Part shown: positions 1-4,111 of the stretch, piece after piece
How positions within the stretch are numbered: position 1 is the first letter of the stretch
Layout of the letters: every line of letters starts with the position of its first letter
The notes under the pieces: model-generated
Seen by the model: only the letters and a program-made list of their open reading frames with translations
Databases searched by the model: none
Told to the model about the DNA's origin: nothing
Position numbers and translations under genes: made by a program
Origin: a virus
Lineage: Duplodnaviria > Heunggongvirae > Uroviricota > Caudoviricetes
IMG/VR virus record: IMGVR_UViG_2695420687_000011
DNA: 4,111 nt
Strand: one strand, 5' to 3'

Positions 1-328
1 GATGACGCATGGCCTGTAACCGGATGCGGCGTTCACTCTGCATCCGGCTACACAAATTTACTCCGCCAGAAAAAGCTCCAGCAGCGAATTTAAAAACAAC
101 TTCCCATGTTCCGTTATCTGCCAGTAATCCGCACATTCGGTGAGATAGCCCTGAGCGATAGCCTCGTCTCATCCGTTCTTGCTCTTCAATCACCTCGTTA
201 TTGTTGACGATGACATCCTTAGCAAAACGAAATACCGGATAACCCGTATCTTTGAGTTTAAATACGCCGCCCCAGGCCAGGTTCTGAAGCGGGGCGACAA
301 AAAAAGTGGTCACGCTGAATACCAGACA
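1..328 (-). CDS. Partial ORF of unknown function running off the left edge; start uncertain (GTG at 328-326 or ATG at 172-170)
   Basis: Minus-strand frame is open from the TAA at RC 341-343 to position 1 (about 113 codons). It lies downstream of and co-directional with the Cro-like gene, where lambdoid phages carry cII/replication genes. No convincing SD, the frame reads through the REP-like hairpin, and the ambiguous bases at 384-391 obscure the upstream region. Confidence 0.3.
20..47. repeat. REP-like palindromic element: perfect 8-bp stem CCGGATGC (20-27) / GCATCCGG (40-47) with a 12-nt loop
   Basis: Inverted repeat read directly. The CCGGATGCGGCG and GCATCCGGCTAC arms resemble the E. coli REP consensus as I recall it (GCCGGATGCGGCG...TTATCCGGCCTAC). 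No T-run follows on either strand, so it is not an obvious terminator. Confidence 0.4.
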
Positions 329-383
329 CAGGCTGTCGAATTTATTCCAGCGTATTTTTTCGCGCTCTTTTTTTCGCCTGACG

Positions 384-391
384 NNANTNNN
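384..391. other. Run of ambiguous bases (nnantnnn) in the assembly
   Basis: Seven N characters at 384-385, 387 and 389-391, interrupted by a (386) and t (388). They break every reading frame across this point. Confidence 0.95.
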
Positions 392-443
392 TCTGACAGC
401 TTTCACGTACCACTCAGGCTGTTTTTCCACTTTCCAGTGATGC

Positions 444-704
444 TTACCCACGGCTTACCTCCTTTTCCTGTGGTTTTAACTCATTCCGGTTTTGATTAGA
501 TTGAAAGCGGGCAGGATAGAGAATCTGCATTTCGCTGATTTCTCCCTTAAAAAAATTGGCCAGACGCTCTGCCAGATCGATAGATGGAATTTGTTCCAGT
601 CTCTCAATACGACTCAGCGTCGCTGGATTAACCTGAACACCCGCAGCAACATGCTGCAAAGTAAATCCGTGCGCCTTACGCACATTTCGTAATGGTGATT
701 GCAT
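444..704 (-). CDS. Cro-like HTH transcriptional regulator (XRE family), 86 aa
   Basis: ATG at RC 702-704 preceded by SD GGAGG (RC of 709-713) with a 4-nt spacer. HTH-like segment GFTLQHVAAGVQVNPATLSRIERLEQ. Divergent from the CI-like gene across a 97-bp palindrome-rich region. TAA stop at RC 444-446. Confidence 0.8.
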   Translation of the reverse strand: MQSPLRNVRKAHGFTLQHVAAGVQVNPATLSRIERLEQIPSIDLAERLANFFKGEISEMQILYPARFQSNQNRNELKPQEKEVSRG

Positions 705-801
705 ATAACCTCCACATATTGCGTGATAAGCATATTATTTAACGCAAATATTTTGCGCAAGTTGATTTGCTTAACGCGCAATAAAGAAATGTAATAAACG
801 C
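705..801. promoter_or_regulatory. Divergent promoter/operator region between the Cro-like and CI-like genes (OR-like)
   Basis: Palindromes read directly: TTGCttaacgcGCAA (767-781), CGCAAAtatTTTGCG (743-757), TTGCGCAA (753-760), imperfect TTGCgtgataaGCAt (719-733). Candidate leftward promoter: -35 TTGCGC (RC of 755-760), 17-bp spacer, -10 TAATAT (RC of 732-737). Candidate rightward -10 TAATAA (792-797) would start the repressor mRNA at or near its ATG. Promoter calls are by eye only. Confidence 0.6.
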
Positions 802-1494
802 ATGAACATAGGAAATCGAGTCAGACAACTTCGCCAGGCGAAGAACATGAAAATCGCCGATCTCGCTGAAGCAATAGGAGTGGATGCGGCGAATATCTCA
901 CGCCTGGAAACAGGTAAGCAGAAACAATTCACTGAACAAGCCCTGAGTAATATTGCCAGGAGCTTAGGTGTTGATATTGCAGATCTCTTTACCTCAGACT
1001 TCAAAAGTAATACTGTATGTAAAAACAGTGCTTGTGAGGATGTTGCGCAGGTGAAGGATGTATTCCGTATTGAAATGCTGGATGTCAGTGCCAGTGCGGG
1101 AAATGGCCTTATCCAGGGCGGTGATGTCATTGATGTGATTCATGCCATTGAATACAGAACTGATAATGCTGTATCGATGTTTGGCGGACGGCCAGCCAAT
1201 CACATTAAAGTTATCAACGTTCGTGGGGACAGTATGTGTCCAACCATTGAGCCAGGAGATCTCATCTTCGTTGATGTCAGTATCAATCAGTTTGATGGAG
1301 ATGGTATCTATGTATTTGGTTTTGATGATAAAATTTATGTCAAACGACTGCAAATGATACCTGACAAACTACTGGTGATTTCTGATAACCAGATTTACCG
1401 TGAATGGGGAATTACCAGCGAAAATGAACACCGGTTTATGGTCTTTGGAAAGGTCTTAATCAGCCAGTCACAAACCCTTAAGCGACACAATTAA
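802..1494 (+). CDS. CI-type phage repressor: N-terminal HTH (XRE) plus C-terminal S24 LexA-like autopeptidase domain, 230 aa
   Basis: N-terminal HTH pattern NIGNRVRQLRQAKNMKIADLAEAIGVDAANISRLETGKQ. S24 catalytic motifs present: GDSM with Ser144 (codon 1231-1233), Lys181 in VKRL (codon 1342-1344), candidate Ala99-Gly100 cleavage bond (1096-1101). TAA stop 1492-1494. No clear SD upstream, consistent with a leaderless or weakly initiated message. Confidence 0.9.
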   Translation: MNIGNRVRQLRQAKNMKIADLAEAIGVDAANISRLETGKQKQFTEQALSNIARSLGVDIADLFTSDFKSNTVCKNSACEDVAQVKDVFRIEMLDVSASAGNGLIQGGDVIDVIHAIEYRTDNAVSMFGGRPANHIKVINVRGDSMCPTIEPGDLIFVDVSINQFDGDGIYVFGFDDKIYVKRLQMIPDKLLVISDNQIYREWGITSENEHRFMVFGKVLISQSQTLKRHN

Positions 1495-1514
1495 CCCTTA
1501 CCTCCTCATCAATT

Positions 1515-1539
1515 AGCCACCCGAAGGTGGCTTTTCATT
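1515..1539 (+). terminator. Candidate rho-independent terminator after the repressor gene
   Basis: Stem AGCCACC (1515-1521), loop CGAA, stem GGTGGCT (1526-1532), followed by TTTCATT. Lies 21 bp after the repressor stop. Confidence 0.5.
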
Positions 1540-1549
1540 ACCCATTAAA

Positions 1550-1602
1550 TTGCATATCTCGCAACAAAAACACTTGCATAATGCGCAACTTCATTTTATC
1601 TT
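1550..1602 (+). promoter_or_regulatory. OL-like tandem operator palindromes with candidate rightward promoter
   Basis: Two 15-bp TTGC-N7-GCAA palindromes, TTGCATATCTCGCAA (1550-1564) and TTGCATAATGCGCAA (1574-1588), centres 24 bp apart, same half-sites as 767-781. Candidate promoter -35 TTGCAT (1574-1579), 17-bp spacer, -10 TATCTT (1597-1602); weak match, by eye. Confidence 0.4.
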
Positions 1603-2013
1603 TCTTTCCAGACAAACAAACAAGGTACTAACAAAATTTGGTTGTAACACGGCGTATGGCACATGCGTCGTTAGCGGTCTGGGGACGTTAAAGGGGACAA
1701 TCCACTCCTTGCTCGGGCAAACAAACCAGGTAGCCGGAATGTGCAAGTCAATGATGATGCTGATAAGACGCCTAACCAGCGTCGCGATTCGGTTTGACGC
1801 CTGGGAAGAGACCAGGGTGCAACGATGAGGGCATTTATGGAACCGCGACAAAGTGTGGTGCCGTAACTGGCTAAGTGCTCTCAGCGTTGTGGTAATCCGC
1901 GAAATGGCGCGGCGGTAAGTATGGCGGGGTTATTCCTTCCCCGTTGAGGACACCGGGTTGTCAGGTTGACCATACGCTTAAGTGACAAGCCCACCACAAC
2001 AGCCACTGCTTTG

Positions 2014-2060
2014 GCGGTACCAGTTTGTACACTTGCTTCCGGCTGGTACCGCTCTTTTTA
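2014..2060 (+). terminator. Terminator-like hairpin: 10-bp stem with T-tract
   Basis: GCGGTACCAG (2014-2023) pairs with CTGGTACCGC (2043-2052) around a 19-nt loop, followed by TCTTTTTA (2053-2060). The loop is long for a classical intrinsic terminator. Confidence 0.4.
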
Positions 2061-2148
2061 CAAAACAGAGAAGAGCATCACCGGACGACGGGCTCATAAC
2101 CCAATCCACCCGGGCGGCTGCCACCGCAGGTGCTCTTCTCTGTTTTGT
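2060..2148. repeat. Perfect 18-bp inverted repeat flanking a 53-bp GC-rich spacer
   Basis: ACAAAACAGAGAAGAGCA (2060-2077) is the exact reverse complement of TGCTCTTCTCTGTTTTGT (2131-2148), verified base by base. Sits 36 bp upstream of the yfdP-like SD. Function unknown. Confidence 0.85.
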
Positions 2149-2196
2149 GGAGAAACCAACCGACCTTGCAGGGTCGATATGATGAGGAGCAGCAAA

Positions 2197-2559
2197 ATGG
2201 CTAGCGAACGCAGTACTGATGTGCAGGCATTTATCGGGGAGCTGGACGGCGGCGTATTTGAAACCAAAATCGGCGCTGTTCTCAGTGAAGTCGCTTCAGG
2301 TGTGATGAACACGAAAACCAAAGGGAAGGTCTCGCTCAACCTGGAAATCGAACCGTTTGATGAGAACCGTGTGAAAATAAAACACAAACTCTCATATGTT
2401 CGTCCGACTAACCGCGGGAAAATTTCCGAAGAAGACACCACCGAAACGCCGATGTATGTCAATCGCGGTGGTCGCCTGACTATTCTGCAGGAAGACCAAG
2501 GACAATTACTGACTCTTGCCGGTGAACCTGACGGAAAACTCCGCGCAGCAGGTCATTAA
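2197..2559 (+). CDS. yfdP: YfdP-like prophage protein of unknown function, 120 aa
   Basis: ATG 2197 preceded by SD GAGGAG (2184-2189) with a 7-nt spacer; TAA stop 2557-2559. Sequence (MASERSTDVQAFIGELDGG...) and length match my recollection of E. coli K-12 CPS-53 YfdP; not verified by search. An alternative start at ATG 2179 (AGGG SD at 2170-2173) cannot be excluded. Confidence 0.8.
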   Translation: MASERSTDVQAFIGELDGGVFETKIGAVLSEVASGVMNTKTKGKVSLNLEIEPFDENRVKIKHKLSYVRPTNRGKISEEDTTETPMYVNRGGRLTILQEDQGQLLTLAGEPDGKLRAAGH

Positions 2560-2624
2560 TATCGTTCTTAATTAACTGATTATTTATCTCATCACTGAAT
2601 ATCCTTATATAGTGAGGACTTATT

Positions 2625-3449
2625 ATGTCTCAGAACTTAGACGCAACCGCAATTAATCAAATCCATGCCCTTATTTCTGCTCAGGGTGTTAATGAAATTA
2701 TTAGTAAGATTGGTGCCGATGCTGTGGCATTGCCTGAGAATTTCCGCATTCATGATCTGGAAAAATTTAATTTAAATCGCTTCCGTTTCCGTGGTGCGCT
2801 TTCCACTGCCAGCATCGATGACTTTACCCGTTATTCTAAAGATCTTGCAGATGAAGGCACCCGCTGCTTTATCGATGCCGATAATATGCGTGCCGTCAGT
2901 GTGCTTAACCTGGGTACTATTGATGAACCAGGTCACGCAGATAACACCGCCACTCTCAAACTGAAAAAGACAGCACCGTTCTCTGCTCTGTTGTCTGTTA
3001 ATGGCGAGCGTAACTCCCAAAAGTCACTGGCAGAATGGATTGAAGACTGGGCCGACTACCTTGTGGGCTTTGATGCTAATGGTGACGCCATTCAGGCAAC
3101 CAAAGCGGCTGCGGCGATCCGTAAAATCACAATTGAAGCGAACCAGACCGCTGATTTTGAAGACAATGACTTCAGCGGCAAACGCTCCCTGATGGAGTCT
3201 GTCGAAGCGAAGACCAAAGACATTATGCCAGTGGCATTTGAATTTAAATGCGTTCCGTTTGAAGGCCTGAAAGAACGTCCGTTTAAATTACGCCTCAGCA
3301 TTATCACTGGCGATCGTCCTGTACTGGTTCTGCGCATTATTCAGCTGGAAGCGGTGCAGGAAGAAATGGCTAACGAATTTCGTGATCTGCTTGTTGAGAA
3401 ATTTAAAGACAGCAAAGTAGAAACCTTTATTGGTACTTTCACCGCCTGA
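2625..3449 (+). CDS. yfdQ: YfdQ-like prophage protein (DUF2303 family), 274 aa
   Basis: ATG 2625 preceded by SD GAGGA (2614-2618) with a 6-nt spacer; 274-codon ORF with TGA stop 3447-3449. Sequence ([21 protein letters not shown]...) and length match my recollection of K-12 YfdQ; not verified. Confidence 0.85.
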
Positions 3450-3461
3450 TTTCATTACTGC

Positions 3462-3483
3462 AAATGCCCCTGCGGGGGCATTT
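3462..3483 (+). terminator. GC-rich hairpin between yfdQ-like and yfdR-like genes (terminator or mRNA stability element)
   Basis: AAATGCCCC (3462-3470), loop TGCG, GGGGCATTT (3475-3483): 9-bp stem whose A/T ends give a short T-run (CATTTAT). Begins 13 bp after the yfdQ stop. Confidence 0.3.
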
Positions 3484-3576
3484 ATGGAAACATAATTTAC
3501 TCAATAATCGCCGGATGGTGAGGGCTTCCTTTTACCAGAATTCAGCGCGGTGCAGCGCATATACGTGGAGAACAAA

Positions 3577-3936
3577 ATGTCATTTATTAAAACTTTTTCC
3601 GGGAAGCATTTTTATTATGACAAGATAAATAAAGACGACATCGTTATTAACGATATCGCGGTTTCCCTTTCAAATATCTGTCGCTTTGCAGGACATCTTT
3701 CACACTTCTACAGCGTCGCCCAACATGCGGTGCTTTGCAGCCAGCTGGTACCGCAGGAATTTGCTTTTGAAGCGTTAATGCATGATGCAACAGAAGCATA
3801 TTGCCAGGACATCCCCGCACCACTGAAACGCCTTCTTCCTGACTATAAACGGATGGAAGAAAAAATAGACGCCGTAATCCGTGAGAAATACGGGTTACCT
3901 CCTGTTTGCTGGTTAATCAGGCAGTTACCGGCATAG
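3577..3936 (+). CDS. yfdR: YfdR-like HD-domain protein, apparently 3'-truncated (119 codons; the K-12 protein is longer as I recall)
   Basis: ATG 3577 preceded by GGAGA (3566-3570). HD-superfamily signature H...HD present (GHLSHFYSVAQH, ALMHDATEAY), but the ORF ends 9 codons after KYGLPPV (CWLIRQLPA then TAG at 3934-3936), before the distal Asp expected in HD domains. Sequence character changes near 3906. Confidence 0.7.
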   Translation: MSFIKTFSGKHFYYDKINKDDIVINDIAVSLSNICRFAGHLSHFYSVAQHAVLCSQLVPQEFAFEALMHDATEAYCQDIPAPLKRLLPDYKRMEEKIDAVIREKYGLPPVCWLIRQLPA

Positions 3937-4111
3937 TTCCAGATCATCTTGATTGGAACATCCAGCTTATCTTTACCACGAACACCGTCACGCAGCGCCG
4001 TCATCTCCGGGCCGCGTTCAATCGCATCGGTCCACATAAACATGGAAATGCTGGTCTGGATCGGATTCTCGAGAGTAGGCATACGAACAAACGGTAAGCT
4101 GTATGAACCTT
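3843..4111 (-). CDS. C-terminal part of an unidentified minus-strand ORF entering from beyond the right edge
   Basis: Minus-strand frame is open from 4111 to the stop at RC 3843-3845 (...GSYSLPFVRMPTLENPIQTSISMFMWTDAIERGPEMTALRDGVRGKDKLDVPIKMIWNYAGN...). Its last ~21 codons are antisense to the yfdR-like 3' end. Product not recognised. Confidence 0.45.
   Translation of the reverse strand, partial: GSYSLPFVRMPTLENPIQTSISMFMWTDAIERGPEMTALRDGVRGKDKLDVPIKMIWNYAGNCLINQQTGGNPYFSRITASIFSSIRL

Follow-up and report, generated by a model that had tools for sequence, protein, structure and literature searches.

A prophage yfdR gene fused to dmsA in an Escherichia draft contig is probably a chimeric product of assembly or library construction

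The stretch of DNA analysed here (hereafter, the window) is 4,111 bp long. An exact look-up of one of its predicted proteins, the hybrid YfdR described below, showed that the window is the entire contig CDRK01000964.1 of the draft assembly GCA_000936005.1, a fragmented draft in which it is contig number 964. Searches of the literature for CDRK01, ERR738819 and GCA_000936005 returned nothing. Most of the window (382-3906, 3,525 bp) corresponds to the early/immunity region of a lambdoid prophage, 99.9% identical over 392-3906 to a contig from an ENA metagenome assembly (L084) and 100% identical over 655-3906 to CCBU01000031.1 (L085), a contig of the sibling draft GCA_000940615.1. It carries, in its left part, the 5' end of a cII-like gene, together with a cro-like gene (444-704, minus strand), a cI/LexA-like repressor with Pfam matches to HTH and S24 peptidase domains (802/847-1494, plus strand), yfdP (2197-2559), yfdQ (DUF2303; 2625-3449) and the beginning of yfdR, so that what is genuine in the window amounts to a lambdoid early region of an ordinary kind. 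The approximately 700 bp between the repressor and yfdP (1495-2196) contain no called gene and no Rfam match, and an Rfam scan of the window gave no RNA family match at all. This interval includes a 25-nt inverted repeat (2060-2084/2124-2148, 88% complementary), and a 197-aa ORF with a TTG start (1966-2559) overlaps yfdP in frame.

The yfdR ORF starts with the ATG at 3577 on the plus strand and stops at 3934-3936. Its native part covers codons 1-110 of 178 (3577-3906) and is followed by nine foreign codons. In a comparison with 3450-4111 as query, E. coli O26:H11 and other genomes matched positions 3450-3906 (query 1-457), which comprise the native yfdR part and the sequence upstream of it, at 100% identity, and all the matches ended at 3906. 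The native sequence finishes with KYGLPPV at residue 110, whereas intact YfdR has 178 aa; what follows on the plus strand (3907-3936) is an out-of-context tail, CWLIRQLPA, and a TAG stop, read from antisense dmsA. In agreement with the initial annotation, which had noted that this ORF keeps its HD motif and ends nine codons after KYGLPPV without the distal conserved Asp, the AQH and MHDATEAY motifs (H...HD) lie within residues 1-110, and the distal Asp of intact YfdR, D119 (...VKYAD..., aligned to KKAD of PDB 2GZ4), falls beyond the break and is absent from the ORF. Residues 1-110 align to the HD-domain protein Atu1052 (PDB 2GZ4), and Pfam matches to YfbR-like and HD_3, with scores just under the gathering cut-off, cover residues 40-104. 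The ORF thus has the H...HD signature of HD-domain phosphohydrolases of the YfdR 5'-deoxynucleotidase type and lacks both their distal Asp and their length of about 178 aa.

From 3907 onwards the coding sequence lies on the minus strand, in an ORF that, as was also seen initially, enters from the right edge and reads about 21 codons into antisense yfdR, with its stop at 3843-3845. The gene, left unidentified at that stage, is dmsA, which encodes DMSO reductase subunit A. The piece (3907-4111, minus strand) begins at codon 422 and breaks off after the second base of codon 490 in a gene of 814 codons; in a scan of one genome per species, it was identical over its 205 nt (100%) to Escherichia albertii NBRC 107761, the second-best species being E. 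whittamii (93%). Its identity to E. coli is 92.7%, with 4,936 E. coli genomes matching at only 90-93%. The NCBIfam model NF011566 (DmsA) recognizes the fragment (E=4e-44, profile positions 423-492 of 814), and this equivalog match and the orthologous DNA match both assign it to DmsA; a complete 814-aa protein followed by dmsB and dmsC is not present. The 5' part of the gene runs off the contig at the right edge, and the 3' 40% (the C-terminal 324 codons) is absent. In E. albertii, dmsA consists of 814 codons and is followed by dmsB, dmsC and ycaC, an arrangement shared by E. coli, and no prophage occurs there. The window ORF ends instead with an out-of-context tail of 21 residues, QTGGNPYFSRITASIFSSIRL, read on the minus strand from antisense yfdR (3843-3906). 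The resulting 88-aa hybrid DmsA fragment had no record in an exact protein look-up.

Three-way alignments of the window with E. coli yfdR and with E. coli or E. albertii dmsA place the breakpoint exactly at 3906/3907, with zero shared and zero inserted bases. The matches on the yfdR side and on the dmsA side are each perfect or near-perfect up to this point. Judging from these alignments, chance is ruled out as an explanation for the junction, since the known-gene matches of both sides end at the identical base. In both convergent genes it is the 3' part that is lost, the 5' part being retained. No IS end, att site, inverted or direct repeat or terminal inverted repeat was found at 3906/3907. 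We considered an IS- or transposon-mediated rearrangement and rejected it, as yfdR and dmsA are fused directly, without intervening sequence, repeats or IS ends.

This junction is not the only one in the contig. Bases 1-381 are non-phage DNA, and every prophage match starts at 392 in comparisons with contigs encoding the same repressor. The leftmost piece (1-169, minus strand) contains the 3' end of hemW, namely its last ~37 codons, and the yggM-hemW intergenic region; it is 91.7% identical to E. coli, a divergence at the level expected for E. albertii, and the hemW match stops at 169. The next piece (170-381, minus strand) is an internal fragment of opgE, a phosphoethanolamine transferase gene (~codons 127-197, 90.6% identical to E. 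coli opgE), with a blunt join at both ends. The contig therefore reads hemW (169 bp), opgE (212 bp), prophage (3,525 bp) and dmsA (205 bp), with three joins within 4.1 kb, at 169/170, 381/382 and 3906/3907. Alignment to the parent sequences shows all three to be blunt, the two sides sharing 0-1 nt, and none is accompanied by an IS end, an inverted repeat or a direct repeat. A run of ambiguous bases (nnantnnn, 384-391) is located within the prophage, 3-10 nt from the opgE-prophage join; in the alignment to the metagenomic relative, both of its called bases agree with the prophage sequence ATAGTTTT. Because their divergence from E. coli equals that of the dmsA piece, the hemW and opgE pieces appear to come from an E. 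albertii-like chromosome too. The loci brought together in this way are unlinked in the E. coli records that we retrieved, where hemW lies by ansB and rdgB, opgE by ompX and mntR, and dmsA by serS and ycaC; relatives of the prophage adjoin mlrA, which adds a fourth unlinked neighbourhood. A gene called at 2-451 (minus strand, 150 aa) combines the start of cII with antisense reading frames of opgE and hemW across both left joins and is spurious, like the hybrid ORFs.

The joins also proved to be unique. Among 5,426 complete E. coli genomes, none has a region covering at least 80% of window 3450-4111, and none therefore contains both sides together. Exact searches for a 24-nt string across the yfdR-dmsA join gave no hit among GTDB species representatives, JGI metagenome contigs or IMG/VR, and the hemW-opgE junction string gave none among JGI metagenome contigs. 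In an exact look-up among ~15 billion proteins, the 119-aa hybrid YfdR was found solely on CDRK01000964.1; neighbouring proteins of the same contig occur on 8 to >1,000 contigs, Logan assemblies included. The absence of the hybrid from the Logan assemblies is weak evidence, since a unitig assembler would split the ORF at a branch point, even with a real join, if yfdR were multi-copy.

Comparison with related prophages bears on the nature of the break. The three relatives that we compared, L084, L085 and L001 (E. coli MBT-5), are mutually collinear at 99.5-99.9% identity from the repressor through yfdR and for a further ~2 kb past the breakpoint. In L084 and L001, four or five small genes separate yfdR from xis, which is followed by int and mlrA; in intact relatives about 2 kb of early genes come after yfdR, and xis and int are found 2-4 kb downstream of it. 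Because related prophages continue unbroken across it, position 3906 is, on this comparative evidence, neither a module boundary nor a phage end. In these intact relatives (8803-10811 of L001, 15406-17414 of L084) int adjoins mlrA (also known as yehV), a classical Stx-phage integration site; the mlrA product has 215 aa versus 233 aa in L001.

These data leave a next to negligible probability that 3906 is a natural prophage end (att), a recurrent mosaic module boundary or the end of a naturally short YfdR isoform. Lambdoid phages are indeed mosaic, and many YfdR entries in databases are shorter than 178 aa, but the right side of the break is a core chromosomal gene cut at codon 490, without integrase or att repeat nearby, and phage homology continues past the break to xis and int. 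The initial suggestion of a prophage boundary or mosaic joint must consequently be abandoned, given that the break falls inside a conserved gene, that three prophages remain collinear for ~2 kb beyond it and that no att site, integrase, IS end or repeat marks it. As for a short isoform, it would be a YfdR truncated before its distal metal-binding Asp, and the short entries are labelled partial by their sources, which is consistent with truncation at contig ends: this is the case of 13 of the 15 listed members of the YfdR cluster, and none of the short entries has the CWLIRQLPA tail. Intact YfdR homologues ending at this position were looked for by exact protein look-up and in the YfdR cluster, and no other record with this ending was found. 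We rejected the isoform on these grounds. Six C-terminally truncated members of the cluster account for 113 contigs (107 aa, 69 contigs; 77 aa, 12; 127 aa, 11; 92 aa, 8; 104 aa, 7; 87 aa, 6); yfdR is a frequent contig end in draft Escherichia assemblies, many of which break inside the gene.

The same relatives speak to a simple local deletion, running from a prophage located just downstream of dmsABC into dmsA, which would have removed the yfdR 3' end, xis, int, attL, dmsC, dmsB and the dmsA 3' end and locked the prophage in place. Deletions of this kind are a known route to cryptic prophages. The geometry fits, with two convergent genes each missing its 3' end and with xis and int lying in the 2-4 kb downstream of yfdR in intact relatives. 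However, those relatives adjoin mlrA and not dmsABC, dmsABC-ycaC-ycaD is free of prophage in the E. albertii type strain and in E. coli, and the deletion would leave the hemW and opgE pieces at the other contig end unexplained, all of which makes it highly improbable. Thus, of the deletion or recombination junction proposed in the initial annotation, the loss of the 3' ends of two convergent genes holds, but a simple local deletion does not.

The prophage DNA leading to the join may itself have been difficult to assemble. Logan contigs of five sequencing runs (L086-L089 and L091), which carry the repressor of the window, terminate without exception within a few bases of position 1925 (~1923-1932), between the repressor and yfdP. 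Since the contigs of all five runs stop near 1925, the yfdP-yfdQ-yfdR block (1925-3906) seems to be multi-copy in those genomes, which suggests a repeat boundary at this point. On its way to the join, the submitter's contig would then have passed through ~2 kb of prophage DNA present in several copies, where an assembler can easily go astray. One Logan contig, ERR738819_471, is 100% identical to window 395-1925 and starts right after the run of ambiguous bases; our guess is that run ERR738819 is the read set of GCA_000936005.1.

The contig of the sibling draft, CCBU01000031.1, provides a further indication. Over positions 1-16800 it is a patchwork of distant loci, in the order yceD-yceF-rluC-rne, fhuA-fhuC-fhuD, prophage, a gnd fragment and mutL-amiB-tsaE-nnr, with a prophage part that extends from the middle of cro to a DUF4222 gene, a 44-aa ORF and ~40 bp of the start of xisR. 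In this contig rne, an essential gene, is cut at ~codon 157. Because of this truncation the patchwork is unlikely to be a real structure and the contig is likely chimeric, suggesting that the chimeras of both drafts may share one source. Over amiB-tsaE-nnr, L085 is 99.3% identical to NZ_CP144926.1, a RefSeq genome of E. coli strain SCPM-O-B-7615, and ~93% identical to the other E. coli listed; NZ_CP144926.1 was probably assigned to E. coli although it belongs to another Escherichia lineage, or else the region is recombinant.

Taken together, the anatomy of the contig and the uniqueness of its joins lead us to consider, with good though not complete confidence, that the yfdR-dmsA junction results from chimeric assembly or ligation chimeras and does not reflect the structure of a bacterial chromosome; it is most probably not a real genomic feature. 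Several features of the window argue for this: three joins in 4.1 kb, pieces of only 169-212 bp, an internal opgE fragment bounded by a join on each side, the run of ambiguous bases, a contig that stops 205 bp into the single-copy gene dmsA and the lack of an independent record of any of the joins. In other words, the window shows unlinked loci in one short contig, pieces of read size and ambiguous bases at a join, and its join was not reproduced in any independent assembly or genome searched, with the reservation that Logan unitigs may miss it if yfdR is multi-copy. Of the three readings offered in the initial annotation, a chimeric assembly is hence the best supported, given the two further blunt joins, the read- or fragment-size pieces and the run of ambiguous bases at one of them.

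We infer a laboratory or assembly mechanism behind the joins. The genuine core would be the 3.5-kb lambdoid prophage stretch (382-3906), which belongs to a region rich in repeats and prone to assembly breaks. Short E. albertii-like chromosomal pieces would have been attached to it, with hemW (169 bp) and opgE (212 bp) at its left end and dmsA (205 bp) at its right end. Their most likely source would be chimeric library molecules or reads formed by blunt ligation of sheared fragments of ~200 bp, a process that would generate homology-free joins. An assembler, or a contig-extension or gap-closing step, would subsequently have used these chimeric reads and extended the contig past its proper end. 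The hybrid ORFs, namely YfdR residues 1-110 plus 9 residues and DmsA residues 1-489 plus 21 residues, would be mere by-products of the join that are not expected in a cell. The main weakness of this chimeric origin is that it requires chimeric reads or aggressive extension or gap-filling, which are undocumented for GCA_000936005.1. A de Bruijn graph alone makes no join without a shared k-mer and, as there is no shared k-mer at the joins, chimeric reads or an extension step must be invoked.

By contrast, a real illegitimate rearrangement of some kind seems unlikely. In its principal form, to which we attach a somewhat smaller probability, in vivo illegitimate recombination in an E. albertii-like strain would have fused yfdR to dmsA by homology-independent end joining and inactivated both genes. 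The join is clean, with 100% identity to E. coli prophage yfdR on the left and to E. albertii dmsA on the right, and an inversion between co-oriented genes would give two convergent 5' halves such as those seen here. Viability provides no argument against a real rearrangement either, because the interrupted genes that can be judged (yfdR, dmsA and opgE) are well established as dispensable in E. coli; hemW is represented on the contig by its 3' end only. Nevertheless, intact relatives of the prophage reside at mlrA, far from dmsA, so that yfdR and dmsA would have met through an inversion or a translocation, or in the course of a multi-break repair in which the hemW and opgE fragments were picked up as well. 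It would require three independent homology-free joins in 4.1 kb involving four loci; the 212-bp opgE fragment, internal and with a join on each side, would demand in vivo two illegitimate events 212 bp apart. In addition, ambiguous bases accompany one join, the joins were found in no other genome, metagenome or assembly searched, and the contig ends only 205 bp into single-copy dmsA. Alternatively, although much more speculative, the whole contig might be a real patchwork, in which a burst of double-strand breaks in the E. albertii-like strain was followed by homology-independent end joining, so that short pieces captured from hemW and opgE and a 5' segment of dmsA became attached to a 3.5-kb remnant of the lambdoid prophage. 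This we regard as very improbable. Were it true, it would represent a small-scale, chromothripsis-like scar in a bacterium lacking canonical NHEJ and, more generally, a real join would be one of the few documented instances in which several fragments were joined end to end without homology in the chromosome of an enterobacterium.

If the junction is, as we favour, a chimeric product, CDRK01000964.1 is unfit as evidence for a truncated YfdR or DmsA, for a prophage boundary or for a dmsA-linked prophage in E. albertii, and contigs of the sibling draft GCA_000940615.1 probably call for the same caution. The main value of the observation would then be one of quality control, the 119-aa hybrid "protein" being already present in public protein collections as a singleton. 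The hybrid ORFs are not to be treated as genes.

Compared with known systems, the window ORF is identical over residues 1-110 to YfdR, a 5'-deoxynucleotidase according to RefSeq that is encoded in the early-left region of CPS-53 and lambdoid prophages, with which it also shares the order yfdP-yfdQ-yfdR, but it is cut after residue 110, lacks D119 and the C-terminal third, and bears a nonsense tail of 9 residues. Likewise, codons 422-490 of the other gene have the same DNA sequence as E. albertii dmsA, which encodes the catalytic subunit of the DMSO reductase DmsABC, whereas antisense yfdR occupies the place where the C-terminal 324 codons of dmsA and dmsBC should be. If the join were real, the loss of xis and int and the truncation of an early gene would recall the cryptic prophages of Escherichia, which have suffered inactivating deletions; however, the relatives examined are located beside mlrA and none by dmsABC, and the contig has extra fragments at its other end. 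The usual graph-based misjoins exploit a shared repeat or k-mer, whereas the window joins its pieces without either. The closest likeness is with chimeric draft contigs from short-read or OLC assemblies, produced by ligation chimeras or over-extension at repeat boundaries. Like them, the window unites unrelated loci through blunt, homology-free joins present in a single assembly, with terminal pieces of read or fragment size, ambiguous bases at one join and a multi-copy prophage core.
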